Counted from the first letter of the stretch, positions 26,428-44,768 are shown. The stretch: DNA of 64,000 nucleotides from Myxococcota bacterium (GCA_023150805.1 JAKLKF010000012.1:17564-81563), one strand, 5' to 3'. Numbers and translations: made by a program. Notes: generated by a model not told the origin, from the sequence alone.

Positions 26428-26550
26428 GCCGGCTCCCTATCGAAGCGCGACATGCGGTGACACAGGTCACGACGTGCAACGCCTGCCCCCCGCGTCGCGT
26501 GTCGAGACACTGGCCGATGTAACGCTTCGATGCAGAGCTCCGAGGGTCCC

Positions 26551-27806
26551 ATGCAGCACAGCGCCTTGGCTTGTCCGGCTCGCCGCCGGCGTGGCAACTA
26601 CAGCCTGATGGTGGCGGTGGCCACGGTCGCGATCCTGGCCATGGGGGCGCTGACGATCGACGTGGCCTACATGCGCCTGGCCCAGGCCCAGGCCCAGGAC
26701 GTCGCGGACGCGGCCAGCAACGCGGCGCTGATCGTGCTCCGCCAGACGGGCAGCCAGTCGCTGGCGCAGCAGGCCGCCGAGAAGGTGATCGCGTCCAACG
26801 AGGTGGCGGGGCACCGCCCGGAGCTGGCCGGGATCACCTTCGGGCACTGGGACGCCGAGGATCCGGCGCCGGAGCTGGTCGAGAGCGGCGCCAACCCGAA
26901 CGCAGTGCGGGTGGTGGTCGCACGGGAGGGGGACCAGGCGGTGCCCCTGTCCCTGTCTCGGCTGTTCGGCAAGGAGGAGTTCGAGGTCCGCGCCTCGTCG
27001 ACCTCGGCGACGCGCAGCTTCCAGATCGTGTTCGTGATGGACATCACGAACTCCTGGAACGAGCGGGACTTCCTGCACGCCAGGGAGGGCGCGCTCGTGT
27101 CGCTGGGCATGCTGGCCAACACGGCGACCGGGGTCGACGAGGTGGGCATGACGAGTTCACCAACCGCTTCGCCTAGGAGTACACGCCCTTCACCCAGCTT
27201 GCCGTCGCGTCCCAAGCCAACGCCGTCGAGGACGCGTGGGCCGAGCTGAGCACGGCCAGCAAGGCCGGCGTGGACAGCAACCACGGCGACGGCAAGAACT
27301 GCACCCTGCACACCGGATCGCGCGAGAACGACTTCAGCTACAAGTCCAAGGGCGGCTGCTACCCGAAGATGCCGCGCGAGTACCGCGACGAGCCGGGCAC
27401 CGACCACAGCACCGGCATGCTGCTGGCCAAGCAGATGTTCGAGGAGTCGCTGTCGGTGGCCGACTACCGCGCGATGATCGTGCTGACCGACGGCCAGCCC
27501 AACGGCCTGGGCGCCGCCGGGGTCAAGCGCGGGCAGGCCGGCTACGTCGAGACCCGCTGGCGCGAGTACCTGGGGCCCGCACCGCGCTCGACGGCGCAGA
27601 TCCGGACCGCCAGCATCGAGGCAGCCGAGCAGATGTGGGACGACCTGCGCGTGCACACCTGGGTGATCTCGTTCGTGGCCGACGACTGGATGATGGACCA
27701 GATGGCCCAGGGGGACGGCTACTACGTCCGCACCAGCAACCCCGCCGACCTGGAGCCGATCATGGCGCAGATCATCAGCGAGCTGCCGCTGGCCATCGTC
27801 GAGTGA
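26551..27806 (+). pseudogene. TadG-like/vWA protein interrupted by a frameshift (~27153) and in-frame TAG (27174-27176)
   Basis: Tad N-terminus (MGALTIDVAYMRLAQAQAQDVADAA), MIDAS-like DITNS; coding continues in another frame FTNRFA*EYTPF...GTDHSTG...IVLTDG. Could be sequencing error. Confidence 0.7.
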
Positions 27807-27833: not shown

Positions 27834-28103
27834 TCACCGCCGCCGGGGTCCGCGCTCCCGTCCCATGCCGAAGTCGTAGCCCGGGTAGGCCCGCCACATG
27901 CACCGGCCGCGCTCGTCGCGGAAGGTGAAGCCGGCGATGCGCCCGCAGGGGTCGACGATCACCCGCACCTGGCCATCCTGCGTGGTCTGGCGCGCGGCGT
28001 AGGCCGTGGCGTGCGGGGTGGCGGGCACGAACTGCACGGAGGCGACGGTGTCGCTCTGTTCAGCGACCACTTCGCTGGCGACGCTGTCGTGGGGACCGTG
28101 CAT
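27834..28103 (-). CDS. Small hypothetical protein (89 aa)
   Basis: GAGGAG ribosome-binding site before ATG 28103; plausible non-shadow composition. Confidence 0.5.
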   Translation of the reverse strand: MHGPHDSVASEVVAEQSDTVASVQFVPATPHATAYAARQTTQDGQVRVIVDPCGRIAGFTFRDERGRCMWRAYPGYDFGMGRERGPRRR

Positions 28104-28266
28104 CGTCCGCTCCTCGGCCTGCCGGGATGGTACCTCGCGGTGCACCGTGGAACGGTGAAATCGCGTGAAGGGGGCCCAAAGGACTCGCAAGGTCTTGGGA
28201 TCGTTCCCGGTTGCCCGCGGTCGGGCGACGGGCCGCCAGGGCCGGTCGCGGCGCGCCGCCGGGGCC

Positions 28267-29385
28267 TCAGCGCACGGGGCTGAAGCCCCGGTCTCCCCAG
28301 ATGTCCAGGTAGCCCTTCCAGACCCCCTCGCAGCCGTCCCGCAGCCGGCAGTCGGCGCAGGCCGCGGGCTGGCCCTTGAGGTCCCGCTTCTTGCGGTCCT
28401 GCCAGTTGAAGCGCGCGCGCTGCTCGGCCGCGTCGAACTGCACGACGGTGCTGGGGTACTGCTTGCCCCGCCCCTCGCCCGGCGGCACCTTGCCCGGCGG
28501 AATGACGTCCCCTCCGCCGCTGCGGATCGAGCAGGCCGTCGAGAGGTCCCGGTACTCGCCCATGTAGCGGCGCAGCAGGGCCTCGCTGCCGCGGAGCGCG
28601 GGCGGCAGGACGCACATCGGGAAGCCGCCGAAGGTGAAGGTGCGGCGGAAGTGGTGCTCGTTGAGCAGGATGGCCTTCACCAGCAGCGGGACGACCTGCT
28701 CGTAGCGGGGGGTGAGCTCGGCGTCGCCCTCGGCGTAGCCCTCAGCCCGGATGAAGTTCACCCGCAGGTCGGACAGGCCCAGGTCCCGGTAGAAGAACTG
28801 CATCATCTTCGGCAGGGCCGCGGCGTTCCAGCCGTTGAGCACGATGTTGACGGACAGGCCGTCGGGCAGGTGCCCCTGGGCTTGCTGCTTGTGCCGCAGG
28901 TAGCGCAGGGCCTCGACCTTCTTGTCGAAGTTGCCGGGCACCCGGGTCAGGCGGTCCTCGAGCGCGGCCGTGTGCCCGTGCATCGAGACCGTGACGCGCG
29001 TCAGGCCCGCGTCCAGCAGGCGGTCGGTGAAGTGCGGAAGCCGCAGCTTGGTCGCGTTGGTCGCGATGGCGACGCGGGTGAAGCCGAGCTTGCGGGCGTA
29101 GGCGACGCTGTCGACGATCCGCGGGTAGGTGGTGGGCTCGCCGCCGAGGAAGCCCACGCTGCGGTAGCCGTCGGCGTAGAAGCGCTCGAGCTCGGCCTGC
29201 ATCTGCTCGAAGCGCATGTAGCTGCGGTCTTCCTGCTTGGGCAGGCCGTCGATGCAGAAGACGCAGCGGTTGTTGCACGCCTTGCCGATGTTGATCTCGA
29301 CGTTGCGGCGCGCGTCGCGATCCGGGTTCCAGGGCTGGTTGCCCGGGGTCGGCTGCGGCAGGCTGGGGGCGGCGGTGGGCTGCAC
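28267..29385 (-). CDS. Radical SAM protein, HxsC-like
   Basis: CNNRCVFC, FLGGEPT, ATNA, SMHGH, GFPMC, C-terminal CADCRLRDGCEG. Confidence 0.88.
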   Translation of the reverse strand: MQPTAAPSLPQPTPGNQPWNPDRDARRNVEINIGKACNNRCVFCIDGLPKQEDRSYMRFEQMQAELERFYADGYRSVGFLGGEPTTYPRIVDSVAYARKLGFTRVAIATNATKLRLPHFTDRLLDAGLTRVTVSMHGHTAALEDRLTRVPGNFDKKVEALRYLRHKQQAQGHLPDGLSVNIVLNGWNAAALPKMMQFFYRDLGLSDLRVNFIRAEGYAEGDAELTPRYEQVVPLLVKAILLNEHHFRRTFTFGGFPMCVLPPALRGSEALLRRYMGEYRDLSTACSIRSGGGDVIPPGKVPPGEGRGKQYPSTVVQFDAAEQRARFNWQDRKKRDLKGQPAACADCRLRDGCEGVWKGYLDIWGDRGFSPVR

Positions 29386-29421
29386 GGAGGCAGTGTAGCC
29401 CGAGGGGTCGCCCCCGCAGCC

Positions 29422-30447
29422 TCAGCCCGCGCCGCCCGAGAAGGGGCGCAGCTCGTCGGTCTGGAAGGACAGGGCGTAGAGGTCGTTGACGCCCATGCAG
29501 ACCTCGCGGCGCGCGCAGCCCTCGCAGGCGGGCACGTGGGTGCGCTTGCGGTCGGGCGCCCAGGAGTAGATCCCCGCGAAGGCCACCTTGCCGGGGACGG
29601 ACTGCCACTCGACGGTGACGCGGGGATCCCAGTGCAGGTCGTTGCTGCAGCTCCAGTGGGGGCCGAGCAGGCACATCGGCACCCCGAAGAAGCGCAGCAC
29701 CGCGTCGGGCGCGCGCGCGGGGAGCAGGGGCAGGATGCGGGCGAGGTCGGCCAGCCGGGGCGCGAGCTCGGTGAAGCGGTCGAAGCCGCCGCCCTCCGCC
29801 GTCAGGTTGCTCACGACGATGAGGCGCGCCCCCAGCTCGCCCAGCAACGCCACCGTGTCGGGGAGCTGCTCGATGTTGCGCGCGGTGACGACCGTGTTGG
29901 CGAACAGGCCGAAGCCGGGCTGGCGGCGCGCGAGGCGCATGGCCGCCGTCACGGTCTCGAAGCTGCCGACGCGGCCGGCGAGCGCGTCGTGGACCGCGGC
30001 CGAGGGGCCGTGCACGCTGAACAGGGCCTCGTCGAGCCACGGCAGCGCCCGCTCCGCGAAGTCGGGACGCGAGAGCATGGTCCCGATGGTCCCGACGCTG
30101 GTCCGCATGCCCAGGCGGCGCGCGAGCTGCAGGGCCTCGACGAAGCGAGGATGGATCGTCGGCTCGCCCCCCGTGAAGTGCACGGAGCGCACGCCGCGGC
30201 TGGCGTGCAGGCGGAGCACCGTCGCCACGCGCCCCCAGGTCACCGGGAAGGCGCGGTAGGACGCCATCCGGTGCTCCTCGCTGCAGAAGGCGCAGCGCTC
30301 GGGGCAGTGGTAGGTCAGGTGCAGCTCCAGCCGCTGCATCACCTGCCCCTTGGGACCGATCCAAGGGCGCGCGTCGGCCGACAAGCCCAGCTCGCTCTGC
30401 TGGGTCGGGCTGGGCAGGTGACCGGGGGACGCCGCGGGCGAGGTCAT
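29422..30447 (-). CDS. Radical SAM protein, HxsC-like
   Basis: CPERCAFC, FTGGEPT, SVHG, GVPMC, C-terminal CEGCARREVCMG. Confidence 0.88.
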   Translation of the reverse strand: MTSPAASPGHLPSPTQQSELGLSADARPWIGPKGQVMQRLELHLTYHCPERCAFCSEEHRMASYRAFPVTWGRVATVLRLHASRGVRSVHFTGGEPTIHPRFVEALQLARRLGMRTSVGTIGTMLSRPDFAERALPWLDEALFSVHGPSAAVHDALAGRVGSFETVTAAMRLARRQPGFGLFANTVVTARNIEQLPDTVALLGELGARLIVVSNLTAEGGGFDRFTELAPRLADLARILPLLPARAPDAVLRFFGVPMCLLGPHWSCSNDLHWDPRVTVEWQSVPGKVAFAGIYSWAPDRKRTHVPACEGCARREVCMGVNDLYALSFQTDELRPFSGGAG

Positions 30448-30451
30448 CGCG

Positions 30452-31453
30452 TCAGCCCCCGCCGGTGGCGGCGCGCGGGCCCCGGCGCTTGGAGGCCAGC
30501 CACGCCGGGTAGAGGCCGCGCACCAGCCGGGTCAAGGCGGCGTCGACCGCCTGGGTCGACGCCCAGACCCCCTCCGGCAGCGCCTGGCGCAGCAGCTCCT
30601 CGACCCGGGCGGCGCCCGCCGCGAGCGCATCGGGCGTGGGGGGTTCGTCCAGGCTGCCCAGCCGGGTCTGTCCACGCAGCCCGTCGAGCTGGCCCGACAG
30701 GCCGACGTTGCTGGGGTGGACGCTGCGGTCGGCGTCCACGACCAGGCCGGTGTTGAAGAAGGGGGTGGGCGCCCAGGTGAACAGGTTGCGCAGGTAGAGG
30801 GGGCGGCCGGCGGCCCACTCCGCCCGGATCCGCTGCCCGATGGCCGAGAAGCCCGCCTCCAGCGCGTCGAGCTGGGCGGGCCTCCACGGCAGGTAGTAGC
30901 CGGGCAGCAGGTTGAAGCGGCGGAAGCCCAGCTCCAGCAGGTGGGCGAAGTTCTCGGCCGCCCGGGGAGCGGTCGAGGGCGCGATGGTCTGCGTCACGAC
31001 CAGGCGAGGGGCGCGGAGCAGCGCGGGCAGCAGGTCCCGCACGTGCTGGTAGCTGTCGGCCACCCCGGGCAGGGCGCGGCGCAGCCCGCGGTGGTCCTCG
31101 GGCCGCCCGTCCAGGCTCAGGGTCAAGATGACCTTGGGCCGGGCCGCGAGGAGGTCGAGCCAGCCGGCGTCGAGCCCCAGCCCGTTGGTGCTCAGGTAGA
31201 CGCGCCGGATCTCGGGGCGGGCGCTGGCCTCCTCGATGGCAGCCCGCACCACCTGGGGCACCAGCAGGGGCTCGCCGCCGAAGAGCTTCACGTCGCCCGG
31301 CCGGCGCGCGTCCACGTAGCGGGTGGCGAACAGCGAGACGGCCGCGCGCGCGTCCTGCTCCGTCAGCGAGGGCCAGCCGTCCTTGGCGGTCGGGCAGTAG
31401 GCGCAGCGCAGGTTGCAGGCCCGCGTCACCGTCAGGATCATCGACGGCGGCAT
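30452..31453 (-). CDS. Radical SAM protein lacking auxiliary-cluster cysteines
   Basis: CNLRCAYC, FGGEPLL, STNG, LSLDG; alternative GTG start at 31534 beside the precursor stop. Confidence 0.87.
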   Translation of the reverse strand: MPPSMILTVTRACNLRCAYCPTAKDGWPSLTEQDARAAVSLFATRYVDARRPGDVKLFGGEPLLVPQVVRAAIEEASARPEIRRVYLSTNGLGLDAGWLDLLAARPKVILTLSLDGRPEDHRGLRRALPGVADSYQHVRDLLPALLRAPRLVVTQTIAPSTAPRAAENFAHLLELGFRRFNLLPGYYLPWRPAQLDALEAGFSAIGQRIRAEWAAGRPLYLRNLFTWAPTPFFNTGLVVDADRSVHPSNVGLSGQLDGLRGQTRLGSLDEPPTPDALAAGAARVEELLRQALPEGVWASTQAVDAALTRLVRGLYPAWLASKRRGPRAATGGG

Positions 31454-31527
31454 CGCCGCTGGCGCCGGGAAGGTCTCCCCGCGCGTCCCCTCACCCAGCA
31501 CCGGGGCCGTCGGCTCCGCGCTGGGAC

Positions 31528-31860
31528 CTACCACTGCCCGTGGGAGCCGTGGCTGCCGTGGGAGCCGTGGCTGCCGTGGGAGCCGTGGCTGCCGTGCGAG
31601 CCGTGGCTGCCGTGCGAGCCGTGGCTGCCGTGCGAGCCGTGGCTGCCGTGCGAGCCGTGGCTGCCGTGCGAGCAGTGGGCCGCGAGCTGGATGCCGCCGC
31701 TGGCGGGGTCCGCGAGCAGGGCGTCCGCCTTGAGCAGCAGCTCGCTGCTGGCGTCGAGCTCCCCGGCGCTGGCCGCTTCGGTCCGCTGCAGGAAGTCGGC
31801 GGGCTTCTTGTCGATGGCGGGGAGCTTGGCGCTGCCCTTGTCCAGGTCCTTGGTGCTCAT
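31528..31860 (-). CDS. hxsA: His-Xaa-Ser repeat precursor peptide (HxsA-like)
   Basis: 61-aa leader-like region then HCS-(HGS)14-HGQW; strong AGGAGG site; directly downstream of hxsB. Confidence 0.9.
   Translation of the reverse strand: MSTKDLDKGSAKLPAIDKKPADFLQRTEAASAGELDASSELLLKADALLADPASGGIQLAAHCSHGSHGSHGSHGSHGSHGSHGSHGSHGSHGSHGSHGSHGSHGSHGQW
31543..31668 (-). repeat. 18-bp tandem repeat x7 encoding (HGSHGS)7
   Basis: Unit CACGGCAGCCACGGCTC(G/C): four TCG units then three TCC units. Confidence 0.95.
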
Positions 31861-31865
31861 GCCGA

Positions 31866-31871
31866 CCTCCT
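31866..31871 (-). promoter_or_regulatory. Shine-Dalgarno site of the precursor gene, overlapping the hxsB stop
   Basis: Minus strand TAGGAGGTCGGC-ATG. Confidence 0.75.
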
Positions 31872-33384
31872 AATCGTTGCCCGTGGCCGGCGGAGGAGTC
31901 TCCCGCGGCCGCGTGATCGTCCAGCGCTGGAAGATGCGCGCCAGGCTGCCGTCGTCGTCGGCCGCCAGGCGCTCGAAGAGCATGCGGGCGATGCCCATGT
32001 GCTGCATGCACTTGGGGGTGTTGGGCCGCTGCCCGAACAGGTCGCCGGCCTGCATGTAGTTGTGCAGCGGGCGGACCCCGCAGTAGGGCGCGTTCCAGCA
32101 CTCGTGGCACTGCGGCAGCCCGTCGAGCAGGCTGGCCACGGCCATGGCGCGCACGGTCGGGTGGCGGATCGCGTCCTGGATGCTGGTCTCGCCCACGCGC
32201 CCCAGGGCGAACATGGGGTTGCCCATGGCGTCGATCATCCGCCCCTCGTCGCTGGGGAAGATGGTGCCGTCGTAGTTGTAGGCGATCTGCCCCGTGCCCG
32301 CGCCGATCGGCGAGCGGATGTCGACGAAGTTGGGGTCGTCCGGGGTCAGCATCTTCTGCAGGAACAGGGCCGCCGTGCCCTCGATGATCTGCACACCGTC
32401 GCGGTTGAGCTGGATGATGTGGTCGAGCGCCTCCTCGTAGAAGCGCAGGAACTCGGGCATGTCCACGCCCACCACCTTCCAGGTCTTCGTGATGAAGCCG
32501 AAGGGGTTGAGCGGCCGCAGGTAGATGTTGCGGATGCCCAGCGACACGTACAGGTCGATCACCTCCCGCCAGTGGTCCATCGTCTTGCGGGTGGTGGTCA
32601 TCAGGGCGTCGACGTGCCACAGCTCGGGATCGCGTCCCAGCTCCACGTACCGGCGGTTGAAGTAGGAGATCCACTTCATCACGGTGTCGTAGGCGCCCGC
32701 CCCCTTGCCGGTCCAGGGGCGGTTCCAGTCGTGCACGTGCTGCGGACCGTCCAGGCTGGTGCACAGCAGCACGTCGTTGGCCAGCAGCCACTCGGCCTTC
32801 TCCTCGTCCATGCAGGTCATGTTGGTGACGAGGCTGAAGTCCAGCGTCTTGCCTTCCTGGCGGTTCTTCTCCCGGCCGTACTCGACGACGAACTTGATGA
32901 CGTCGAAGTTGACGGTCGGCTCGCCGCCCTGGAACTCGAAGGCGATGTAGGGGCTGGGCGACTGCATCGCCGTGTCGACCACCTTCTTGGCGGTCTCCAG
33001 GCTCATGTCGGTGTCGACCCGGTCCATGTCGGTGCGGGAGGCGTGGCAGTACTTGCAGGACTGGTTGCAGCGCAGCGTCGCGATCACGACGTGCAGGTGC
33101 GGCCCCATGCCCAGCCAGCGCTTCTTGCGCCGGAAGCGCTCGGCCACCGCTTCGGCGTCCATGCCGTCCCGCACGAAGCCCTTGGCCAGCAGGGCGGCGT
33201 GCTCGGCGTGGTCCGGGCCCAGTTCCCCCGCCAGCAGCGCCTGGAAGTCCGGCTCGGAGAGCAGGTGCCACTCGCCCGTGTCGTGGGTGAGGAGCACCTT
33301 GCCCGCCATCCGGCCGAAGCGGAAGGGCCCCAGCGCGTCGGCGTCCAGGCGCGGGTGCTGGAGTCGGAGGCTGCCGGTGCGCAT
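31870..33384 (-). CDS. hxsB: His-Xaa-Ser system radical SAM maturase HxsB
   Basis: N-terminal extension (PFRFGR..LLTHDTGEW), TLRCNQSCKYCHAS, EFQGGEP, TSLDGP, LRPLNPFGF, AYNYDG..SDEGRM, CHECWNAPYCG. Confidence 0.9.
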   Translation of the reverse strand: MRTGSLRLQHPRLDADALGPFRFGRMAGKVLLTHDTGEWHLLSEPDFQALLAGELGPDHAEHAALLAKGFVRDGMDAEAVAERFRRKKRWLGMGPHLHVVIATLRCNQSCKYCHASRTDMDRVDTDMSLETAKKVVDTAMQSPSPYIAFEFQGGEPTVNFDVIKFVVEYGREKNRQEGKTLDFSLVTNMTCMDEEKAEWLLANDVLLCTSLDGPQHVHDWNRPWTGKGAGAYDTVMKWISYFNRRYVELGRDPELWHVDALMTTTRKTMDHWREVIDLYVSLGIRNIYLRPLNPFGFITKTWKVVGVDMPEFLRFYEEALDHIIQLNRDGVQIIEGTAALFLQKMLTPDDPNFVDIRSPIGAGTGQIAYNYDGTIFPSDEGRMIDAMGNPMFALGRVGETSIQDAIRHPTVRAMAVASLLDGLPQCHECWNAPYCGVRPLHNYMQAGDLFGQRPNTPKCMQHMGIARMLFERLAADDDGSLARIFQRWTITRPRETPPPATGND

Positions 33385-33647
33385 CAGGTCGTTCCCCCGC
33401 CGTCGCCCCGCAGGGTCGCCTCGGCCTGGTTCCGCCGGACCACGGTCTCCGCGAGCACGTGGTTGCAGAAGTGGTCGACCAGGACGTCGGCCACGTCCGG
33501 GTCGACCTGCTCGAAGCGCACCGTCAGCTCGTGCTCCGAGGGCAGCACGGTCACGCGCGCCACGCCGGCGTACTGCGAGGCGACCGCCTCGACCGCCCCG
33601 TCGTCGTAGAGCGAGCGATGCAGAGAGACCTCAGGAGCCACCGCCAC
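33384..33647 (-). CDS. Small HxsD-like protein
   Basis: SLYDDGAVEAVASQY..DHFCNHVL parallels the HxsD pattern; TGATG overlap with hxsB. Confidence 0.65.
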   Translation of the reverse strand: MAVAPEVSLHRSLYDDGAVEAVASQYAGVARVTVLPSEHELTVRFEQVDPDVADVLVDHFCNHVLAETVVRRNQAEATLRGDGGGTT

Positions 33648-34113
33648 CCTCCCGCTCGGCGGGCGCGTCCCAGGGCACGCTGATCTCCAGGTCGTCCTGG
33701 GCCAGCTCCTCCTGGTCGAGCTCAGCCAGGAGCTGGTCGATGCTGGACCGGGTCGAGGTGCTGAAGAAGGCGCGGGCCATGTAGTACTCGCGGATCTTCC
33801 GGGTCGAGTCCCCGATGCGCACCCGCAGGACCTGGTTGAGCAGCTCGTTGGCCAGCTCGCCGGCCAGGGCCTCCAGCGCGGCGGGATCGGTCGGGCCCTT
33901 GGGCTTCAGCCGCACCTCGACCTGCTTGTCCGCCGACCGGTGCAGGTACACCCAGCAGCGGTCCACGAACAGGTAGGCGGCGCCGTAGATGGCGTCGAGG
34001 GGGTACAGCTCCTCGTCGACGCGCAGGGCCACGCGCCGGCCGTCCTCCAGCCAGGTCAGCTCGTCCACCAGCGCCTCGGCCGGGGTCGAGGTCTCCACGC
34101 TCACGTCGCTCAC
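33631..34113 (-). CDS. hxsD: His-Xaa-Ser system protein HxsD
   Basis: LYPLDAIYGAAYLFVDRC, GELANELLNQVLRVRI..TRKIRE resembling the HxsD LL(N/D)xxLR motif. Confidence 0.8.
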   Translation of the reverse strand: MSDVSVETSTPAEALVDELTWLEDGRRVALRVDEELYPLDAIYGAAYLFVDRCWVYLHRSADKQVEVRLKPKGPTDPAALEALAGELANELLNQVLRVRIGDSTRKIREYYMARAFFSTSTRSSIDQLLAELDQEELAQDDLEISVPWDAPAEREGGGGS

Positions 34114-34658
34114 GTCAGGCTCTCCGGGCCATAGGCCAGCAGGCGCTCGTCGTGCGGCTCCATCCGGGCCAGCTCGCCGAGGTCCCCCTGCGAGGACAGC
34201 TCGTTGGACCGGATGTGGGCCGCGAGCCCCATGACCACGCGCCCCAGGGACTCGTCGGTGGGCTTGTCGCCCTGCCCGCCGTCCATGAGCACCAGGTCCA
34301 GCAGCTCGGTGTGCGCCACGCCCCGGGGGCTACCCCGCCGGTGGCAGAGGTGCACGCGGCCGACCGCGCCGTCGCGGTGCTGCAGCGTGAGCACGCTGGC
34401 CCCGCGCTCCACCGCGCCGAGGTGGGCGACGAACCAGCCCGCTCCGACGTGCGAGCCGCGGGTCAGCGGCGCCAGCAGCCACCACGGCCCTGCGCCGGCC
34501 TGGGGCGAGGGAGGGGCCGACGAGCGCCCGGCGTCGGACGCTTCCGCCCCGCCGGGCGCGGGAGGCAGGCTCGAACCCACGGCGGCGGTGCCGACCACCA
34601 CCGTGGCCACCGCCGTTCCCAGGCCGATCTGCTGCAGGACCTTGCGACGAGAGTCCAT
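34110..34658 (-). CDS. Hypothetical protein with twin-arginine-like signal peptide
   Basis: MDSRRKVLQQIGLGTAVATVVVG; overlaps both neighbours (TGATG and GTGA). Confidence 0.7.
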   Translation of the reverse strand: MDSRRKVLQQIGLGTAVATVVVGTAAVGSSLPPAPGGAEASDAGRSSAPPSPQAGAGPWWLLAPLTRGSHVGAGWFVAHLGAVERGASVLTLQHRDGAVGRVHLCHRRGSPRGVAHTELLDLVLMDGGQGDKPTDESLGRVVMGLAAHIRSNELSSQGDLGELARMEPHDERLLAYGPESLT

Positions 34659-36979
34659 CACCACACCCCGTTCGTGATCTCGAGCTCGTAGTGCTGGCAG
34701 CTCATGGAGACCGAGCCCTTGCGCACCACCTTGATGTAGAAGTCCCGCGAGTCGTCCGCGCAGGTGTTGTAGAGCGCCGACCCGCCGCTGCAGGACCGCG
34801 TGTCCGAGGGGATCGTGTGCACTCCCTCGCCCTTGTCCTGGTTGAACCAGGAGTACTCGTTCGTCGCCGTCGCGCACTCGACCGCGGTGCTGTCGTAGGA
34901 GTCGTCGTAGACCGTGAACTCGTAGGTCGAGGCGCCCTCGACCAGCTCGACGGCGAACTTGAAGTAGTCGATGCCCGCCGAGACGTCGTCGCTGACGTCG
35001 TCGCTGGCCGTGACCCGGTACCAGTCGGCCTCGTCCCCCTCGAGCATGTTGCCCTCGATGGAGATGGTGTCGACGCCGTCGTCGGAGATGCTGCTCCACT
35101 CGCTGATGGCGTCACGCCCCTCGTCGCCGTAGCCGGCGCTGTCCTCGAAGGTGTCGTAGGGGTCGCAGACCTCGGTGCTGACGGTGTTGCTGTCGGCCGA
35201 GGTGTTGCCCGCGGAGTCGGTGCAGGTCGCGTAGCACTCGTTGACCTCGCCCCGGCTGAGCGTCGTCGACCAGGAGAAGGTGCCTCCCGAGGTGCAGGTG
35301 TCGGTGTCCGACCAGCTCGACAGCGAGTCGCTGCAGTAGAAGGTCAGGTCGCAGAGCGCCTCGCAGGTGCCGGTCAGGGTGACCGACTCCTCGTTGCGGT
35401 AGGCGAAGGGCGTGTTGATCTCCGGCGCGTCCGGCGCCGTGCCGTCGTTGATCGTGACGTAGTCGCTGGCCGAGGTCCCGTCCTCCTCGCCGTCGTTGGG
35501 GGTGACCACGCACTCCCAGCCCTGGCCGTGGGCGGTGTAGCTGCTGTCCACGGTGTTGGTCGTGACCGTCGAGAGGGCGCCGTCGCGGTACCACTCGTAG
35601 CGATACTCGATCCGGTCGCCGTCGGCGTCGGTGGAGGCCGTCAGGACCTCGCAGTAGAGGTCGTCCTCGGGCTCGGGGCGCTCGGGCGAGATGCCCACGA
35701 CGGGCGCGGTCGGCTGGGCGTTCTCGATCTGGGTGGTCGGGCTGGTGACCGGGGTGCCGTCGACGTAGCTGTCGTAGGGCGTGATCTGGACCTGGACCAG
35801 GTCGCCCTTGGTCGTCTTGGCCGCCGGGTAGGTGCCGGTCGTCTCGCCGGTGTCCACCGTGCCGTTGACGGTCCACTGGTAGCGGTAGCGCTCGCTGTCG
35901 CCGTCCTGGTCGAACCAGCCCGACGGCGAGGCGACCAGGTCCACGGTGGTGTCCGGCGCCGAGGGGGTGATCGCCACCGAGTCGACCGAGGGCCCCGAGT
36001 TCTCCACGGTGATCGAGTCGTAGCCCGGGTCGCCGTAGCCATAGCCGTCGTTGGGGTAGGCGTAGACCTCCCAGTACTGCCCGCGCACGGTGACGCCGCG
36101 GCTGACGGTGTCGTTGCTGCCCGACTGGTAGAGGGCGCCCCCCAGGTACCAGTCGTAGCGGTAGGTCACGGCGTCACCCTCGGGATCCGCCGCGTCCGCG
36201 GTGACCACGGCCACCAGGCTCTCGCCCGACGCGGCCGGCTCGGGCGAGATGACGACCGAGGGCGCCCCCGGGCGCGCGTTGACCGACAGGGTCGCGGTGT
36301 CCTGGTCCGTGCGTCCCGCGCTGTCCGTGACCTCCACCGTGATCAGGTGGTCGCCGTTGCTCAGCGTGCCGGCGGCGGTCCAGGCCCCCGAGGAGGAGGG
36401 CGCGGCCGACAGGCCGAGGTCGCCGTCGACCGACGAGCGGACCGAGACCACCAGGTCCTCGGAGGAGTCCTCGGCGTCGGCCACCTGGGCCTCGAAGACG
36501 ATGAGATCCCCCGGCTCGAAGAAGTCCCCGGAGGCCGGCGTCACCAGATCGATCGAGGGAGGCGTGTTCTCCTCGATGACGACCGACACGGTGGCGCTGG
36601 CCGTGTCCAGCCGGGGGTCGGTCACCGTGACGGTCACGGTCTGCTCGCCGACCTCGTCGAAGGTCCAGTCGCAGGTGGCGGTACCGTCGGAGTTCACCGG
36701 CGCCGTGGTGCACATCGTGGAGGTGCCCGTGACCCAGGCGTGGTCCAGGTCGGAGAGCGCCGTCTCGTCGAAGACCTGGGCGAGCGCCTCGAAGCGCACC
36801 GACTGGCCCTGGAAGAAGCGCGCACCCTCGGAGGGCGAGGTGATGGTCACGGCCGGCGGCTCGTGCCGGATGTTGACCGTCTTGTCGCCGCTGCAGCCCG
36901 CCATGAGCAGGGCCAGCAGCGCCGCGCCTGCGACAGGCGCAGGTACAGCGTGGCGGTGCGAGGGGACACTGCAGGGCAT
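34658..36979 (-). CDS. Ig-like repeat surface lipoprotein with Cys-containing PPC-like C-terminal domain
   Basis: Lipobox LMAGC; repeated P..V.I.P / D.DGD...Y.Y.W / V.P.DG units; ends CQHYELEITNGVW. Confidence 0.82.
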   Translation of the reverse strand: MPCSVPSHRHAVPAPVAGAALLALLMAGCSGDKTVNIRHEPPAVTITSPSEGARFFQGQSVRFEALAQVFDETALSDLDHAWVTGTSTMCTTAPVNSDGTATCDWTFDEVGEQTVTVTVTDPRLDTASATVSVVIEENTPPSIDLVTPASGDFFEPGDLIVFEAQVADAEDSSEDLVVSVRSSVDGDLGLSAAPSSSGAWTAAGTLSNGDHLITVEVTDSAGRTDQDTATLSVNARPGAPSVVISPEPAASGESLVAVVTADAADPEGDAVTYRYDWYLGGALYQSGSNDTVSRGVTVRGQYWEVYAYPNDGYGYGDPGYDSITVENSGPSVDSVAITPSAPDTTVDLVASPSGWFDQDGDSERYRYQWTVNGTVDTGETTGTYPAAKTTKGDLVQVQITPYDSYVDGTPVTSPTTQIENAQPTAPVVGISPERPEPEDDLYCEVLTASTDADGDRIEYRYEWYRDGALSTVTTNTVDSSYTAHGQGWECVVTPNDGEEDGTSASDYVTINDGTAPDAPEINTPFAYRNEESVTLTGTCEALCDLTFYCSDSLSSWSDTDTCTSGGTFSWSTTLSRGEVNECYATCTDSAGNTSADSNTVSTEVCDPYDTFEDSAGYGDEGRDAISEWSSISDDGVDTISIEGNMLEGDEADWYRVTASDDVSDDVSAGIDYFKFAVELVEGASTYEFTVYDDSYDSTAVECATATNEYSWFNQDKGEGVHTIPSDTRSCSGGSALYNTCADDSRDFYIKVVRKGSVSMSCQHYELEITNGVW

Positions 36980-37083
36980 CGCCGGCTCCGGGAACTCGGA
37001 CTCGGAGCCTACAGGAACCCGGAGGGGTCCGCAAGCGCCGCGTCAAGATCACCAAGCGTCGCAGGGGCCCGGGGGCGACCACC

Positions 37084-38121
37084 TCAAAGCGCGCGTTCGA
37101 GGGCCGCGGTCCGGCGCTCCAAGGACGGCTGCTCGGTCGGGCTGCGCCGCCCCCGCCGCGCCTGGATCCGCTCGAGCAGCGCCGGCTCGGGGTCGCGGCC
37201 GAGCACCGCGCGCACCACGGGCAGCGGGTCCTCGAAGACCGGCGACAGCTCGCGCTCGTCGAAGGTCCGCGCCATGCTGAACATCCCCGCGCAGACCGGG
37301 TCCCACCGGCAGGCGTCGCAGGCCCGCCCCTTGCCGTGGAGGAACTCGAGCTGGTGCACGAAGCCCTTGCCGTCGAGGAAGCGGATGCAGCGCTCCTCCT
37401 CCTTGACGATCTTGCGCGTCTCGGTGCTGGCCCAGGCGAAGCGGCGCATGAAGCACAGGGGCACGCGCTCGGCCCGGAAGGTGCGTCCCGTGCGGTGCAG
37501 GTACTCCATCGCCAGCTCCAGGCTCACCATGAACTCGTGGTGGCGCGGCACGCAGTCGGGGTTGTCCTCCGCCCGGTTCCCGTCCGGGTCCATGTTGTTC
37601 CACACGAAGTGCCGGATGAAGGGGAAGCGGTCGCAGAGCCACATCACGGTCTCGTGGAGGTGGTCGGCGTTGTAGGCGCAGATCACGGTGTTGATGTCGG
37701 CGGTGATCCCGACCTCGGGCACGTGGCCCAGGCACTGCACCAGGGTCTCCCAGGCGCGCGGGTACTGCGTGATCCAGTCGTGCACCTCTCGCCGGTGGGA
37801 GTGCAGCGAGACGTGGACGTGCTGCAGGCCCGCGGCGACGCACTCGCGGAAGAAGCCCAGGTCGGCCAGCCGCTGGCCGTTGGTGATCATGCGGTTGTAC
37901 AGCCCCCGCTGCGTGGCGTACTCCAGGGCCGGGAAGAGCAGCGGGGACAGCGTCGGCTCCCCCCCCGTCAAGATGATGCCGTCGTAGCCGAGCTCCACCA
38001 GCCCATCGACGTGCTCCCGGAGCTCCTGCTCGGTCAGGTCCACCCCCGTCGGCGGGTTGCTGCAGAAGCGGCACCGCTGCAGGCAGTTGCGGGTGAGCTG
38101 GAGGTAGCCGAGGTTCGCCAT
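37084..38121 (-). CDS. Radical SAM protein, HxsC-like
   Basis: MANLGYLQLTRNCLQRCRFC, LTGGEPT, ITNG, SLHSH, RVPLC, CDACRWDPVCAG; GGAG site before ATG 38121. Confidence 0.88.
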   Translation of the reverse strand: MANLGYLQLTRNCLQRCRFCSNPPTGVDLTEQELREHVDGLVELGYDGIILTGGEPTLSPLLFPALEYATQRGLYNRMITNGQRLADLGFFRECVAAGLQHVHVSLHSHRREVHDWITQYPRAWETLVQCLGHVPEVGITADINTVICAYNADHLHETVMWLCDRFPFIRHFVWNNMDPDGNRAEDNPDCVPRHHEFMVSLELAMEYLHRTGRTFRAERVPLCFMRRFAWASTETRKIVKEEERCIRFLDGKGFVHQLEFLHGKGRACDACRWDPVCAGMFSMARTFDERELSPVFEDPLPVVRAVLGRDPEPALLERIQARRGRRSPTEQPSLERRTAALERAL

Positions 38122-38277
38122 GCCAGCTCCGGTCCGGGCGGGGTCGGTCGTTCCACCGATGCGGTCAGGGCGCGCCGGCGGGCAGGGTGAACCTACACGG
38201 GCGAAGTGAACTTGGCAGCGGGAGGTGCAAGGCGCCGTCGCGGGCGGTATCGTCTGCGCTCTCTCGGGAGCCCCGCC

Positions 38278-41200
38278 ATGCCCCTGGTCGCCCCTTTCCT
38301 GGCCATCTTCGCGCTGGCGTGCAGCAGCGACGGCAAGATCACCGCCTACACCGAGCCGCCGGAGGTGACGATCACCACCCCCGCCGACGGTGCCGAGGTG
38401 CTCCAGGCCGTCGCCGTGTCGATGCGCGGCCTGGTGGTCGACAAGGAGTTCTCCGACAGCCTGTCCAGCCTGACGGCGCAGTGGAGCGTCGACGGCGAGG
38501 CCATCTGCGAGGGGTCCTACGTCGACGACGGCGGCAACGTCGCCTGCGTCCACACCTTCGCGGTGGCCGGCACGGTCGAGCTGGCGCTGACCGTCACCAA
38601 CCCCGACGGCGCCTCGGCCACCGCGACCTCCGAGGTGGTGGTCCTGCCCAACGCCGCCCCGACCGTGGCCATCGAGCTGCCCGACCCGACCGGGCGGTAC
38701 TACGCCGACCAGCTTCTCTCCTTCCTGGCGTGGGCCAACGACGGCGAGGACGCCGCGACCGACCTGTTCGCCACCTGGACGAGCGACCTCGAGGGCACGC
38801 TGGACATCGACGACACGCCCGACGCCGACGGCATGCTGGCCGGAGACACGGTGCTGGGCGAGGGCGAGCACCTGATCACCCTGCAGGTCGAGGACACCAC
38901 CGGCCTGATCGGCACCGACTCGATCATCGTGGACATCGGGCCGCCGAACAGCCCCCCCTCCTGCGCCATCACCGCCCCCGGCAACAACGACAGCTTCGAG
39001 ATCGGCAGCACCATCCTCTTCGAGGGGACGGCGACCGACGCGGACATCGACGCCGACGAGCTGACCGTCACCTGGAGCAGCTCCCTGGACGGCGTGCTCT
39101 CGACCACCGCGCCGACCTCGGCGGGCACCATGACCTTCGGGGCCAGCGGCCTGAGCGCGGCCACCCACACCATCACCCTGCAGGTCGAGGACGAGCTGGG
39201 CGGGTCCTGCAGCGACGCCATCCTCATCTCGGTGGGCGACGGTCCCGACGTGGTCATCGACAACCCGACCTCCGGGGACGTCGAGAACGAGGGCGAGTCG
39301 GTCGCCTTCCAGGCGACGGTCACCGATCCCGACGACGCGGCGACCTCGCTGGACATCACCTGGGAGAGCAGCCTGGACGGCGTGCTGAGCACCGCTGGCG
39401 CCGACAGCTCGGGCATCACGGCCTTCTCTTTCGCGGGCCTGTCGGTGGGCGACCACATCATCTCGGTCACCGCGGTCGACCCGGAGGGCTACTACGCCGT
39501 CGAGAGCGTGCGGCTCACCATCAACGGCCTGCCCGACGAGCCGGTGGTCGAGATCGACCCCGGCGACCCGCTCTCCGACCAGGACCTGACGGCGATCATC
39601 ACCGCCGACAGCACCGACCCCGAGGGTGACGCGGTCACCTACACCTATGCCTGGCGCCGGAACGGCGCGTCCACCAGCTACATCACCGACACGGTGCCGG
39701 CCTCGGCGACCACGCGTGGCGAGACCTGGTCGGTCGTCGTGACCCCCAACGATCCCTACGGCAGCGGGGCCACCGGCACCGACAGCGTGGTCGTCGCCAA
39801 CGCGCCGCCGTCGGTGGCCTCCGCCGCCATCAGCCCCACGAGCCCGGTCGAGGGGGACACGCTGACCTGTGTCGCGGGCGCGACCTCGGACGCCGACGGG
39901 GACACGGTGAGCCTGAGCTACCGCTGGACCGTCGACGGCGTGGCGGCGTCTTCGACCTCCAGCACGCTGTCGTCGACCGCCTTCGAGAAGGGCGACAGCG
40001 TCACCTGCAGCATCACGCCCAACGATGGCTACGCCGACGGCACGACCGTCACCTCGGCGGCCGTGACCGTGGGCAACAGCGCCCCCACCATCACCGCGGC
40101 CACGCTCGCGCCGACCACGGCCTACGAGGCGTCGACCCTGACCTGCACCCCCAGCGGCGGCACGGACGCCGACGGGGACACGGTCAGCTACCGCTACGAC
40201 TGGGTCGTGGGCAGCTCGACCCTGGGGCTGGACAGCGCGAGCCTGACGGGATCCTGGTTCGACAAGGGCGACGCGGTCACCTGCGTGGTGACCCCCACCG
40301 ACGGGACCGACGACGGCAGCCCGGTGTCCTCCAACGTCGTCACGGTCCGGAACACGGCCCCCCAGCTCACCAGCGTGACCCTCAGCCCGACCTCGCCCAC
40401 CGAGAGCAGCACCATGTCCTGCTCGCCGGGCGCGACCTCGGACGACGACGGTGACAGCGTCAGCCTGACCTACGGCTGGGTGGTGGACGGGGTCGACCTG
40501 GGCCTCAGCGGCAGCAGCCTGAGCAGCGCCTGGTTCGGCAGCGGCGACACGATCCAGTGCTACGGCACCCCCGACGACGGCACGACCGCGGGCGCCGCCG
40601 TGTACTCGGCGGTCGTGACGGTGGCCAACACGGCCGCGACGGTCGCCAGCGCCAGCATCACCCCGACCAGCCCGGTCGAGGGGGACACGCTGACCTGCGT
40701 GGCGGGCACCAGCAGCGATGTCGACGGCGACGCCGTCACGCTGTCCTACCGCTGGGCGATCGACGGCTCGACCATCGCCGCCACTGGCAGCACCCTCTCT
40801 TCCACCTGGTTCGGCCGGGGCGACTCGGTCACCTGCACCATCACGCCCAACGACGGGACGACCGACGGGACCAGCGTCACCTCGGCGGCCGTCGTGGTCG
40901 GCAACACGGCCCCCAGCCTGGCCTCGGTCAACCTCTCGCCCACTACGGCCTACGAAGGCTCGACGATGACCTGCACGCCGGGCAGCGCCACGGACGTGGA
41001 CGGCGACACGGTCTCGTACCGCTACGACTGGCTGGTCTCCGGCACCTCGCTGGGCCTGGACAGCAGCAGCCTGTCGGGCTCCTGGTTCGACAAGGCCGAC
41101 ACGGTCACCTGCGTGGTGACGCCGACCGACGGCACCGCCTCCGGCAGCGCGGTCTCGTCGAACACCGTGACCATCCGGAACACCGCGCCGGTCCTGGCCA

Positions 41201-42798
41201 GCCTGTCGCTCACGCCCACCACCGCGACCGAGAGCAGCACCTTCGCCTGCACGCCGGGCGGGACCTCGGACGCCGACGGCGACAGCGTCAGCCTGAACTA
41301 CGGCTGGCTGGTCGACGGCGCGGACGCCGGGGTGACTGCGGCCAGCCTGGCGGGCGCGTACTTCGGAAAGGGCGACACCGTCCAGTGCTACGCGACGCCC
41401 TACGACGGCGCGACCAGCGGGACCACGCTGTACTCGGCGACGGTGACCGTGTCCAACACCGCGCCCTCGGCCACCGCCGTCGAGATCGCGCCCGTCGACC
41501 CCTACACGGACGACACCCTGACGGCGACCGCCAGCGGCTGGACCGACCCCGACGGCGACGCCGAGGGCTACGACTGGCAGTGGTACGTCGACGGCACCGC
41601 GGTCAGCTCGGGCGGCACCAGCCGCACCCTGTCGGGCACCAAGTTCTCCAAGCACCAGCTCGTCCACGTGGTGGCCACCCCCGACGACGGCACCGCGACG
41701 GGCAGCCCCGTCACCAGCGGCACGGTGGAGATCCTGAACACCGCGCCGACCGCGCCCACGGTGCAGGTCACGCCGACCGACGCCGAGCCCGAGGACGACC
41801 TGGTCTGCGGCATCGTCACCCCCAGCGCCGACGCTGACGGCGACACGGTCAACTACCGCTACGAGTGGTGGGTGGACGGGGTCAAGTCGACCGTCACCAC
41901 CGCCACCCTGGACGAGGCCTACACCGAGGACGGCGACACCTGGACCTGCCGGGTCACGCCCTACGACGACGACGAGGACGGCACCTCGGCCAGCGACGCC
42001 CAGGAGGTGGTGGACCGCACGGCGCCCGACCAGCCGGTGATCTCGGCCATCGACGAGTACCGGAACACGACCTCGGTGTCGTTGTCCGGCACGGCCGAGG
42101 CCGGCGCGACGGTCACGGTGACCATGGACTGCACCGACGGCACGCTGAGCGAGGTGGACGTCACCGCCTCGTCCGGCGGCACCTGGTCGACCTCGTTCTC
42201 GATGGACCGCGGCGAGGAGTGTGACTTCGTCGCCTACGCCACCGACGCCCACGGCAACGTCAGCGGCCTGAGCAACACGGTCACCACCGAGTCCTGCAAC
42301 CCCTACGACACGCGCGAGGACAGCCTGGGCTACGGCGACACCTGTGTCGAGTCCATCGACGAGTGGTCGGTCCTCACCGACGCCGGCACGACCGTCGTCG
42401 AGATCCAGGGCAACATCATCGACACCACCGATGTCGACTGGTACGTCATCGACACCTCGCAGACGGTGCTGACCGCCGGCACCAACGTCTACAACTTCGA
42501 GGTGACGCTGACGGAGGGCGCCTCGGACTACACCTTCGAGGTGTACCGCGGCAGCTGCGCGACCGCCGACCTGGAGTGTCCGTCGACGCCGGACCTGACG
42601 GACTACGCCTACTTCGCCCAGGACGTGGGCGGCGCGGAGCACTCGATCCCCTCGGACAGCCGCTACTGCTACACGGGCTCGCCCTTCTACAACAACTGCG
42701 ACGACCTCAGCGACGTGTACTACATCAAGGTCGAGCGGATCAGCACCGCCCTGTCCTGCCAGCACTACGAGCTGTCGATCAGCAACGGCGCCTGGTAG
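38278..42798 (+). CDS. Giant Ig-like repeat surface lipoprotein (~1500 aa), paralog of 34658-36979
   Basis: Lipobox ALAC; many ~90-aa S/T/D-rich repeats with DADGD and paired Cys; ends CQHYELSISNGAW. Confidence 0.85.
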   Translation: MPLVAPFLAIFALACSSDGKITAYTEPPEVTITTPADGAEVLQAVAVSMRGLVVDKEFSDSLSSLTAQWSVDGEAICEGSYVDDGGNVACVHTFAVAGTVELALTVTNPDGASATATSEVVVLPNAAPTVAIELPDPTGRYYADQLLSFLAWANDGEDAATDLFATWTSDLEGTLDIDDTPDADGMLAGDTVLGEGEHLITLQVEDTTGLIGTDSIIVDIGPPNSPPSCAITAPGNNDSFEIGSTILFEGTATDADIDADELTVTWSSSLDGVLSTTAPTSAGTMTFGASGLSAATHTITLQVEDELGGSCSDAILISVGDGPDVVIDNPTSGDVENEGESVAFQATVTDPDDAATSLDITWESSLDGVLSTAGADSSGITAFSFAGLSVGDHIISVTAVDPEGYYAVESVRLTINGLPDEPVVEIDPGDPLSDQDLTAIITADSTDPEGDAVTYTYAWRRNGASTSYITDTVPASATTRGETWSVVVTPNDPYGSGATGTDSVVVANAPPSVASAAISPTSPVEGDTLTCVAGATSDADGDTVSLSYRWTVDGVAASSTSSTLSSTAFEKGDSVTCSITPNDGYADGTTVTSAAVTVGNSAPTITAATLAPTTAYEASTLTCTPSGGTDADGDTVSYRYDWVVGSSTLGLDSASLTGSWFDKGDAVTCVVTPTDGTDDGSPVSSNVVTVRNTAPQLTSVTLSPTSPTESSTMSCSPGATSDDDGDSVSLTYGWVVDGVDLGLSGSSLSSAWFGSGDTIQCYGTPDDGTTAGAAVYSAVVTVANTAATVASASITPTSPVEGDTLTCVAGTSSDVDGDAVTLSYRWAIDGSTIAATGSTLSSTWFGRGDSVTCTITPNDGTTDGTSVTSAAVVVGNTAPSLASVNLSPTTAYEGSTMTCTPGSATDVDGDTVSYRYDWLVSGTSLGLDSSSLSGSWFDKADTVTCVVTPTDGTASGSAVSSNTVTIRNTAPVLASLSLTPTTATESSTFACTPGGTSDADGDSVSLNYGWLVDGADAGVTAASLAGAYFGKGDTVQCYATPYDGATSGTTLYSATVTVSNTAPSATAVEIAPVDPYTDDTLTATASGWTDPDGDAEGYDWQWYVDGTAVSSGGTSRTLSGTKFSKHQLVHVVATPDDGTATGSPVTSGTVEILNTAPTAPTVQVTPTDAEPEDDLVCGIVTPSADADGDTVNYRYEWWVDGVKSTVTTATLDEAYTEDGDTWTCRVTPYDDDEDGTSASDAQEVVDRTAPDQPVISAIDEYRNTTSVSLSGTAEAGATVTVTMDCTDGTLSEVDVTASSGGTWSTSFSMDRGEECDFVAYATDAHGNVSGLSNTVTTESCNPYDTREDSLGYGDTCVESIDEWSVLTDAGTTVVEIQGNIIDTTDVDWYVIDTSQTVLTAGTNVYNFEVTLTEGASDYTFEVYRGSCATADLECPSTPDLTDYAYFAQDVGGAEHSIPSDSRYCYTGSPFYNNCDDLSDVYYIKVERISTALSCQHYELSISNGAW

Positions 42799-44707: not shown

Positions 44708-44768
44708 GGGCGCAGCCTACCCGCGCGGGCGTGCCAGGGGGAGGGCCGCGTGCCTTCGAGAGGAGGCG

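Follow-up and report, generated by a model that had tools for sequence, protein, structure and literature searches.

A stretch of 64,000 nt from a Myxococcota bacterium (GCA_023150805.1 JAKLKF010000012.1:17564-81563), referred to here as the window and with all the coordinates counted from its start, carries on its minus strand a gene cluster that, judged by family models, is a Myxococcota-type (HxsA4) variant of the His-Xaa-Ser (HXS) radical-SAM (S-adenosylmethionine) effector-maturation system. The comparison of related genomes gives good support to a small protein with a twin-arginine translocation (Tat) signal, encoded directly upstream of hxsD, being an old and near-constant, core member of this operon. 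The gene ahead of it encodes a large lipoprotein that, from its distribution, is an accessory and later addition in two families of the order, with its stop codon overlapping the start of the Tat-protein gene. Both exported proteins probably constitute the envelope-side module of this Hxs variant, by analogy with canonical HXS systems. The host assembly is a metagenome-assembled genome of 7.8 Mb and 90.7% completeness; the G+C content of the region is around 72%, and genuine reading frames were told from spurious ones by their third-position G+C (GC3). The chain of genes in question belongs to a minus-strand run that spans from 38121 to 28267, and consists of the following genes, given from the upstream end:

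34658..36979, minus strand: chain lipoprotein, 773 aa (Big_7, Big_9, PKD and Glucodextran_B domains; lipobox)
34110..34658, minus strand: Tat-signal protein, 182 aa (twin-arginine signal SRRKVLQ; no family match)
33631..34113, minus strand: HxsD, 160 aa (TIGR03976, 55.5 bits, cut-off 50)
33384..33647, minus strand: HxsD-like protein, 87 aa, or 85 aa from the GTG at 33641 (NF038315, 54.3 bits, cut-off 41)
31870..33384, minus strand: HxsB radical SAM/SPASM maturase, 504 aa (TIGR03978, 503.1 bits, cut-off 370)
31528..31860, minus strand: HxsA4-type precursor, 110 aa (NF038313, 82.8 bits, cut-off 55)

The last four genes thus score above the cut-offs of their NCBIfam models.

The association of the exported proteins with the hxs genes was studied in the host genome and 40 relatives (41 genomes), from which up to 20 kb were fetched per match and in which the twelve proteins of the window were placed by tblastn. 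A homologue of the Tat-signal protein was found in 26 of these genomes and HxsB above its cut-off in 24, with 15 genomes having neither of them. All the HxsB-positive genomes (24/24) carry the Tat protein, and it was found without HxsB in G012 and in G007, the latter being 68% complete and with its match touching a contig end. The Tat gene lies directly upstream of hxsD in 21 relatives' loci, in 7/7 further GTDB species and in 4/4 genomes from other families of the class, which makes 32 loci, and the lipoprotein gene is coupled to it in 21 loci. The usual order is rSAM6, rSAM_up, (lipoprotein), Tat, HxsD, HxsD-like, HxsB, HxsA4, rSAM_d1, rSAM_d2, (rSAM_d3), where the rSAM labels stand for further radical SAM genes of the cluster. 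An earlier note on this DNA had taken both exported proteins as true operon members; on these counts the claim stands for the Tat protein, and for the lipoprotein only in part of the lineage.

In a wider sample of 251 genomes of the phylum, a Tat-like match was detected in 54 and HxsB in 94, with 52 of the 54 Tat-like-positive genomes having HxsB and 42 of the 94 HxsB-positive ones giving no Tat-like match. Within the class of the window, 18 of 20 positive genomes have the Tat-like gene no more than 10 kb away from HxsB. More distant Tat-like genes lie beside radical SAM and HxsD-like genes in five loci (L074-L077, L085), and nothing recognisable was found near the Tat-like gene in two others (L081, L082). 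In G039, the row of lipoprotein, Tat, HxsD and HxsD-like genes runs on to rSAM_d1-d3 without HxsB (L026, G039:C9), and this genome has its only HxsB on a separate contig, next to a different radical SAM gene (L048, G039:C198).

The junctions of the chain are tight, and the five overlapping ones that the earlier note had described were all confirmed on the minus strand. The lipoprotein gene ends in a TGA (34660-34658) whose A is also the first letter of the Tat-protein ATG (34658-34656), giving TGATG; the Tat-protein stop (TGA, 34112-34110) overlaps the hxsD GTG (34113-34111) as GTGA; hxsD (stop 33633-33631) overlaps the HxsD-like gene by 17 nt if this starts at the GTG at 33647, or by 11 nt from the in-frame GTG at 33641, which is better spaced from an upstream GGGAGG, so that there is overlap either way; a TGATG with one common A again joins the HxsD-like gene (stop TGA, 33386-33384) to hxsB (ATG, 33384-33382); and the hxsB stop (TAG, 31872-31870) merges into an AGGAGG at a distance of 5 nt from the precursor ATG (31860). 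Taken singly, a GTGA or TGATG overlap is within chance at 72% G+C, but the conservation of the overlaps exceeds it. Among the 17 loci where both the lipoprotein and Tat genes and a start could be placed, 15 retain the TGATG between them and the remaining two show gaps of 1 and 3 nt. At the Tat stop, 10 of 21 loci retain a start of the ATGA or GTGA type, ATG and GTG alternating, and in eight relatives' loci the distance from the Tat stop to hxsD is 36-300 nt. The junction of the lipoprotein and Tat-like genes of L034, a pair that stands alone, looks TGATG-type.

Transcription of the chain was studied in thirteen runs on record as RNA that hold part of the stretch, of which contigs of four runs, from four studies, were aligned. 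This evidence consists of Logan contigs, not reads, and gives neither strand, level nor ends, and uncovered parts mean nothing. The chain is covered by near-identical contig pieces of 200-700 nt, which bridge the junctions hxsB/hxsA4 (X1 record 2, X8 record 18), hxsD/hxsD-like (X1 record 4), hxsD-like/hxsB (X8 record 19) and, in two studies, Tat/hxsD (X1 record 5, X8 record 20), and X9 record 30 bridges the gap between rSAM_up and the lipoprotein gene with only 31 nt on one side. This gap, of 104 nt (36980..37083), is the one intergenic space of any size ahead of the chain, where transcription could start internally; it shows no promoter- or terminator-like site, and a fold z-score of 0.11 against shuffles, both of them weak tests in high-G+C DNA. 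The earlier note had also considered an internal promoter or terminator separating the exported proteins from the hxs genes; a pattern scan of the minus strand from 28000 to 38400, a similarly weak test in such DNA, detected no promoter- or terminator-like sites. We infer co-transcription of the chain, with which the RNA contigs are compatible.

The Tat-signal protein is built of a signal and variable linker (residues 1-55) followed by a conserved alpha/beta domain of 125 aa. Its twin-arginine motif SRRKVLQ occupies residues 3-9, and M1, R4 and R5 are invariant in 25/25 aligned homologues (38-67% identity), the rest of the N-terminal 55 residues varying in sequence and length, a pattern that would be expected of a working twin-arginine signal. 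A TatC (PF00902, 235 bits) is encoded in the same genome, on contig C398. In the mature domain P58, W60, W75, H103, C105, D121, M125-D126-G127, N152-E153, H169 and R172 are invariant or nearly so. The protein matched no model of Pfam, NCBIfam or PADLOC. A word-indexed collection gave 158 homologues, all annotated as hypothetical, and a profile search of 1.84 billion sequences gave 715 representatives at E up to 0.001, of which 374 remain at a threshold of 1e-10 and 133 at one of 1e-30. Among the 150 matches listed, the family members are small stand-alone proteins of around 100-240 aa, and no fused forms were found among longer proteins, which is weak evidence.

A model of the Tat protein generated by AlphaFold2 from the homologue alignment has a mean predicted local distance difference test (pLDDT) of 80, with most of residues 60-180 above 90, and shows a five- or six-stranded sheet against one long and three short helices. 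His103, Cys105, Asp121, Met125-Asp126 and His169 sit on neighbouring strands and a helix of this confident model. Foldseek found no PDB fold match for it (best E 0.48), and the wide structural alignment of VIA gave a best Z of 5.3, under its stated noise level of 7-8, with Mdm12, MucB/RseB, KA1, Aha1 and BamC among the weak rows, all below noise. The Tat profile found nothing below E 0.9 in the PDB sequences, and the ESM Atlas returned Tat-signal look-alikes only, at 0.77-0.81, below the level that counts. The domain was also considered as an exported HxsD paralogue, which was rejected at an hhalign probability of 1.3% against the HxsD alignment.

The HxsA4-type precursor has a leader of 60 aa without a hydrophobic segment, followed by HCS, a run of HGS repeats (15 or more contiguous units) and a C-terminal HGQW. 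No signal peptide was recognised in it, the maximum of its Kyte-Doolittle mean over 13 residues being 1.05, nor any peptidoglycan-binding domain, the only Pfam match being a compositional one to Collagen. The leaders of its homologues share a KKP-x-DFLQ-type motif and then KAD-x-LLADP before the HCS, the HGS run and the HGQW end, with the number of HGS/HxS units ranging from 4 to 49. Two assemblies carry runs of N inside the HGS repeat, whose length is evidently unstable or hard to assemble.

We compared the precursors of loci with and without the Tat protein. In 31 precursors from Tat-linked loci, the maximum hydrophobicity, measured in the same way, has a median of 0.91 and does not exceed 1.54, with no clear hydrophobic segment. 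Twenty HxsB loci were also fetched from the 42 genomes that have HxsB and gave no Tat-like match, and nine precursors from eight of them show a median of 1.45 (range -0.09 to 2.27); six have a signal-like stretch after a basic patch, one a canonical twin-arginine motif (L101), one a Sec-like signal (L103) and one none (L094). This complementarity, in which precursors have an export signal in cis if the Tat protein is missing and lack one if it is present, is suggestive, though not decisive. In L065 (9761-11485) there are two HxsA4 genes, with 19 and 42 HGS units, and a second Tat-like gene between them, 11 nt upstream of the second, diverged precursor; this joint duplication is the most direct hint in the sequences that both proteins may go together. 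In L101 (G043:C27), the twin-arginine motif and the hydrophobic stretch are located within the leader of the (HGS)n precursor itself.

The chain lipoprotein starts with a signal and a lipobox (LMAGC, Cys29), continues with Ig-like domains, three YRY-W repeat modules and an Ig/FN3-like domain, and finishes with a beta-sandwich C-terminal domain ending in NGVW. The lipobox and the conserved motif after it are found in most of the homologues and in a 1530-aa lipoprotein encoded next to the chain, the search pattern having missed the lipobox in some homologue rows. The C-terminal 262 aa were modelled at pLDDT 85 as the Ig/FN3-like domain plus the beta-sandwich. Foldseek gave 235 matches for this model at E up to 0.001, with template modelling (TM) scores of only 0.2-0.3 over the two-domain model, and among these were carbohydrate-binding, collagen-binding, FN3 and adhesin modules, such as the carbohydrate-binding module 2c26 (4.9e-06), VesC 6bqm and the collagen-binding tandem of ColG, 5iku. 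No match to Pfam PPC was found in the lipoprotein, and nothing in its domains or models suggests catalysis. A complex prediction of its C-terminal 262 aa with the mature Tat domain (56-182) gave a score of 0.01 against a mark of 0.32, for which the tool returned no verdict, and it counts for nothing.

The C-terminal domain of the lipoprotein is also found beside hxs genes that have no Tat-like partner. In five of the 20 Tat-less HxsB loci (L091, L092, L093, L095, L101) the gene immediately ahead of hxsD or hxsD-like, in the same orientation, encodes a large lipoprotein with a homologous C-terminal domain, with sizes between 699 aa (truncated at the end of the locus) and 1863 aa; in L094 a similar one is nearby on the opposite strand, and tblastn found no such lipoprotein in the remaining 14. 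By sequence homology, then, a module with this C-terminal domain is recruited beside hxs genes elsewhere in the phylum. The lipoproteins of L091-L095 and L101 are giant and cysteine-rich; CDG-x-DNDCDG-type repeats are numerous in them, and their C-terminal domain resembles that of the window lipoprotein.

The other genes of the cluster, and the intergenic gap mentioned above, are located as follows:

42851..44716, minus strand: rSAM6, radical SAM protein, 621 aa (Pfam PF04055, 72 bits)
38206..42798, plus strand, divergent: Ig-repeat lipoprotein, 1530 aa (Big_6/Big_7, lipobox ALAC)
37084..38121, minus strand: rSAM_up, radical SAM protein, 345 aa (TIGR03977, 89.9 bits, cut-off 267.9)
36980..37083, minus strand: 104-nt gap ahead of the lipoprotein gene (from the sequence)
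30452..31453, minus strand: rSAM_d1, radical SAM protein, 333 aa (PF04055; best NCBIfam match PapB, 89 bits, below cut-off)
29422..30447, minus strand: rSAM_d2, radical SAM protein, 341 aa (best match HxsC4, NF038332, 89.1 bits, cut-off 500)
28267..29385, minus strand: rSAM_d3, radical SAM protein, 372 aa, last gene of the run (PF04055, 76 bits; GC3 frame analysis)

Most relatives have rSAM6 directly upstream of rSAM_up on the same strand, the latter with identities of 76-87%, and nearly all have rSAM_d1 following the precursor gene. In the window the 1530-aa lipoprotein gene separates rSAM6 from rSAM_up. The protein it encodes is 44% identical to the chain lipoprotein over the C-terminal 552 aa (BLASTP, E 6e-122), and from this homology it is an expanded paralogue with the same N- and C-terminal domains and more repeat modules.

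HxsC (TIGR03977) was not found above its cut-off, neither in the window, where rSAM_up is the nearest thing to it, nor in the 90.7%-complete genome, where the best score was 90.8 bits; HxsC4 was not found in the window beyond the low score of rSAM_d2, and the precursor scores only 16.2 bits with the model of canonical HxsA (TIGR03979, cut-off 121.65). The earlier note had seen no dedicated peptidase or transporter inside the chain, and indeed Pfam and NCBIfam detected no such domain in the 12 cluster proteins. PADLOC gave generic viperin-like radical SAM core matches only, and none for the lipoprotein, the Tat protein, HxsD or HxsA4. HxsB has a secondary match to TIGR03906 (97.6 bits). A second HxsB-family gene (453.8 bits) is present in the host genome (L042, G000:C166:6813-8471), flanked by two opposite-strand radical SAM genes, a GNAT-like open reading frame (ORF) and a very large polyketide-synthase-like ORF, and tblastn detected no HxsD, HxsA4, Tat-like or lipoprotein gene adjoining it.

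Outside the run, a TadE/TadG-like gene (Tad, Tad_C) and an unassigned ORF of 209 aa (26461-27806, plus strand) converge on the end of the radical SAM genes. Just upstream of rSAM6 there are a gene for an AstE/AspA-type deacylase (44769-45749, minus strand) and one for a PUA-domain SAM methyltransferase (45791-47167, minus strand). The former was considered as the missing peptidase and rejected, as none of the fetched loci gave a homologue, the loci of the closest relatives not extending beyond rSAM6; no homologue of the methyltransferase gene was found in any fetched relative locus either.

The HXS system was reportedly predicted by Haft and Basu in 2011. According to the available part of a recent study, a four-gene HXS system protects E. 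coli by blocking the entry of phage DNA, and the canonical HxsA, which has a signal peptide and a peptidoglycan-binding domain, acts in the periplasm once matured; HxsB, HxsC and HxsD are all required for its N-terminal cleavage, for a change of +8 Da and for its accumulation in the periplasm (Li et al., Nat Commun 2026, PMC13128918). The same part of the text calls the export route of HxsA "non-canonical" and dependent on the other Hxs proteins, leaving open how it is exported, and places 99.7% of the HXS systems in Pseudomonadota, with more than 99.8% of them having four proteins (PMC13128918). In what is available of a 2022 paper in the Journal of Biological Chemistry, HxsB appears only as a cluster in a similarity network. 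No paper naming HxsA4, HxsC4, "HxsD-like" or "His-Gly-Ser repeat" was found in the library searched, and these types are database models.

Compared with the canonical HxsD-HxsB-HxsC-HxsA system, the window shares the HxsB and HxsD equivalogs above cut-off, a substrate with His-Xaa-Ser repeats, a product expected outside the cytoplasm and a cluster without a dedicated transporter or peptidase. In contrast, HxsC is below its cut-off in both window and genome, and the precursor fails TIGR03979, has neither signal peptide nor peptidoglycan-binding domain, and carries 15 or more contiguous HGS units instead of five spaced repeats. The gene order also differs (D, D-like, B, A, rSAM), and the window adds five radical SAM genes, the HxsD-like protein, the Tat-signal protein and the lipoprotein. 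Of the fourth Hxs type of NCBIfam (NF038313, NF038315, NF038332), HxsA4 and the HxsD-like protein pass their cut-offs, but the best HxsC4 match reaches 89.1 of the required 500 bits and this type includes no model for the Tat protein or the lipoprotein.

Two other systems resemble the locus. In Tat hitchhiker or caddie pairs, such as MelC1-MelC2 of the Streptomyces tyrosinase or the small and large subunits of hydrogenases, a protein without a signal crosses with a Tat-signal partner. The likeness, which concerns the working principle only, is that of a small Tat-signal protein beside a signal-less partner bound for the periplasm; there is no similarity in sequence or fold, and the putative partner here would be a repeat peptide modified by radical SAM enzymes. 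In the maturation of quinohemoprotein amine dehydrogenase, the radical SAM enzyme QhpD acts on the gamma subunit QhpC, and the system has its own ATP-binding cassette (ABC) exporter and subtilisin-like peptidase. There also an HxsB-related SPASM radical SAM enzyme modifies in the cytoplasm a small protein without a signal, which then joins exported periplasmic partners, but the ABC exporter and the peptidase of that system are not in the window cluster.

Judging by their families, HxsB and as many as five additional radical SAM enzymes would modify the 110-aa precursor in the cytoplasm, with the participation of HxsD and the HxsD-like protein. The functions that the canonical effector has in cis, an export signal and an envelope anchor, are missing from this precursor, and the operon encodes two exported proteins instead. 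These may deliver the matured repeat peptide to the periplasm or the outer membrane, or receive or retain it there, with the Tat protein as a carrier of the signal-less product through TatABC or as a periplasmic receptor, and the lipoprotein as an anchor or binding platform. On balance we consider it probable that both proteins act in this way as the envelope side of the Hxs variant. That they tie the Hxs product to the envelope had been proposed in the earlier note, and it is made more plausible by the available part of Li et al. 2026 (PMC13128918). Export, contact of the pair with HxsA4 and the biological role are themselves inferred, and an envelope-level role against phages is suggested only by analogy with canonical HXS. 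A more specific proposal is that the Tat protein is a caddie with a new fold that binds the matured (HGS)n peptide in the cytoplasm and crosses with it via the Tat translocase, and that the beta-sandwich of the lipoprotein docks the pair at the outer membrane, as a myxobacterial counterpart of the periplasmic HXS barrier against the entry of phage DNA; it is speculative, and we think it unlikely, as we do the carrier role by itself within the favoured reading, for which a periplasmic receptor or enzyme role is considered too.

Several observations weigh against the exported pair acting on the Hxs product. L030 and L033-L036 each encode a paralogous Ig-repeat lipoprotein of 1250-1310 aa and, 9-51 nt further on, a Tat-like protein, and have no hxs genes nearby, which indicates that such a pair can work alone. 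The orthologous operon of G004 (L047) reads rSAM_up, a gap of 99 nt, HxsD, HxsD-like, HxsB and HxsA4, with neither of the exported genes; in this genome the lipoprotein-Tat pair occupies the end of a different contig (L034). Together with the HxsB-positive genomes of the phylum that have no Tat-like match and the stand-alone pairs, this operon bears out in part the possibility, raised in the earlier note, that relatives carry hxs genes without these partners. Twelve loci keep Tat-hxsD without the lipoprotein (L018, L022, L038, L052, L053, L055-L057, L086-L089); outside the class of the window, only 2 of the 34 genomes with a Tat-like match have this gene at 10 kb or less from HxsB; and related genomes are not independent samples, so that the counts overstate their statistical weight. 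The hydrophobicity distributions of both sets of precursors overlap, with L094 having neither a signal nor a Tat-like gene and L019, L029 and L031 reaching 1.28-1.54. The Pfam model TAT_signal (PF10518) was matched by 7 of 25 homologues at E up to 1 (best 0.001) and not by the protein of the window. Regarding transcription, none of the RNA-library contigs listed crosses the lipoprotein/Tat junction (34658), and one of them spans the divergent promoter region, which makes DNA carry-over in the libraries possible.

The main rival explanation sees the pair as an envelope module in its own right, such as an adhesin-like lipoprotein plus its periplasmic partner, which was inserted among the hxs genes and is co-transcribed with them but has no dealings with their product. 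The pairs without hxs genes, the G004 operon, the mostly unlinked distant Tat-like genes and the 1530-aa paralogue next door, which is divergent and has no Tat partner, all fit this explanation, but it does not account for the Tat gene staying beside hxsD across class-level divergence, with or without the lipoprotein, nor for the Tat protein being found, among relatives without HxsB, only in G012 and the incomplete G007. The duplication of the Tat-like gene together with HxsA4 in L065, and the repeated occurrence, ahead of hxsD in Tat-less families, of lipoproteins that share the C-terminal domain of the chain lipoprotein, also argue against it, and we regard it as unlikely. Less probable still is that the Tat protein is neither carrier nor receptor but a periplasmic processing or cofactor enzyme, either the leader peptidase or a metal loader or unloader of the His-rich peptide. 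Its conserved His, Cys, Asp and Met-Asp residues lie on neighbouring elements of the model, the chain has no peptidase, and the (HGS)n core would be an obvious metal ligand; on the other side, neither the Foldseek nor the VIA comparison revealed similarity to any peptidase or metalloprotein, nor did its sequence, and a precursor without its own export signal would still need a route to the periplasm. Finally, the overlaps could be incidental, with an internal promoter in or after the Tat gene driving hxsD-hxsA4 and the exported proteins being mere neighbours. The eight loci with a spacing of 36-300 nt before hxsD would agree with this, as would the bridging of only some junctions by the RNA-library contigs, and a GTGA at a TGA stop is expected by chance in about one in three cases at such G+C; nevertheless, the ATGA or GTGA that 10 of 21 loci keep at this position, the crossing of the Tat/hxsD junction by contigs of two studies and the negative result of the promoter and terminator scan, weak as this test is, make it very improbable.

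According to the part available of the same study, HXS was shown as an antiphage barrier only in 2026, with an effector that must reach the periplasm (PMC13128918). In the variant described here the parts appear to have been separated, with the export and anchoring signals lost from the precursor itself and a Tat-signal protein and a lipoprotein gained by the operon, and the resulting question is whether the repeat peptide travels with, or binds, these two proteins. The caddie route, if true, would be a previously undescribed export route for an effector modified by radical SAM enzymes. The work also defines a protein family, that of the Tat-signal protein, without a model or known fold, whose genomic company is almost always that of Hxs-type radical SAM genes.

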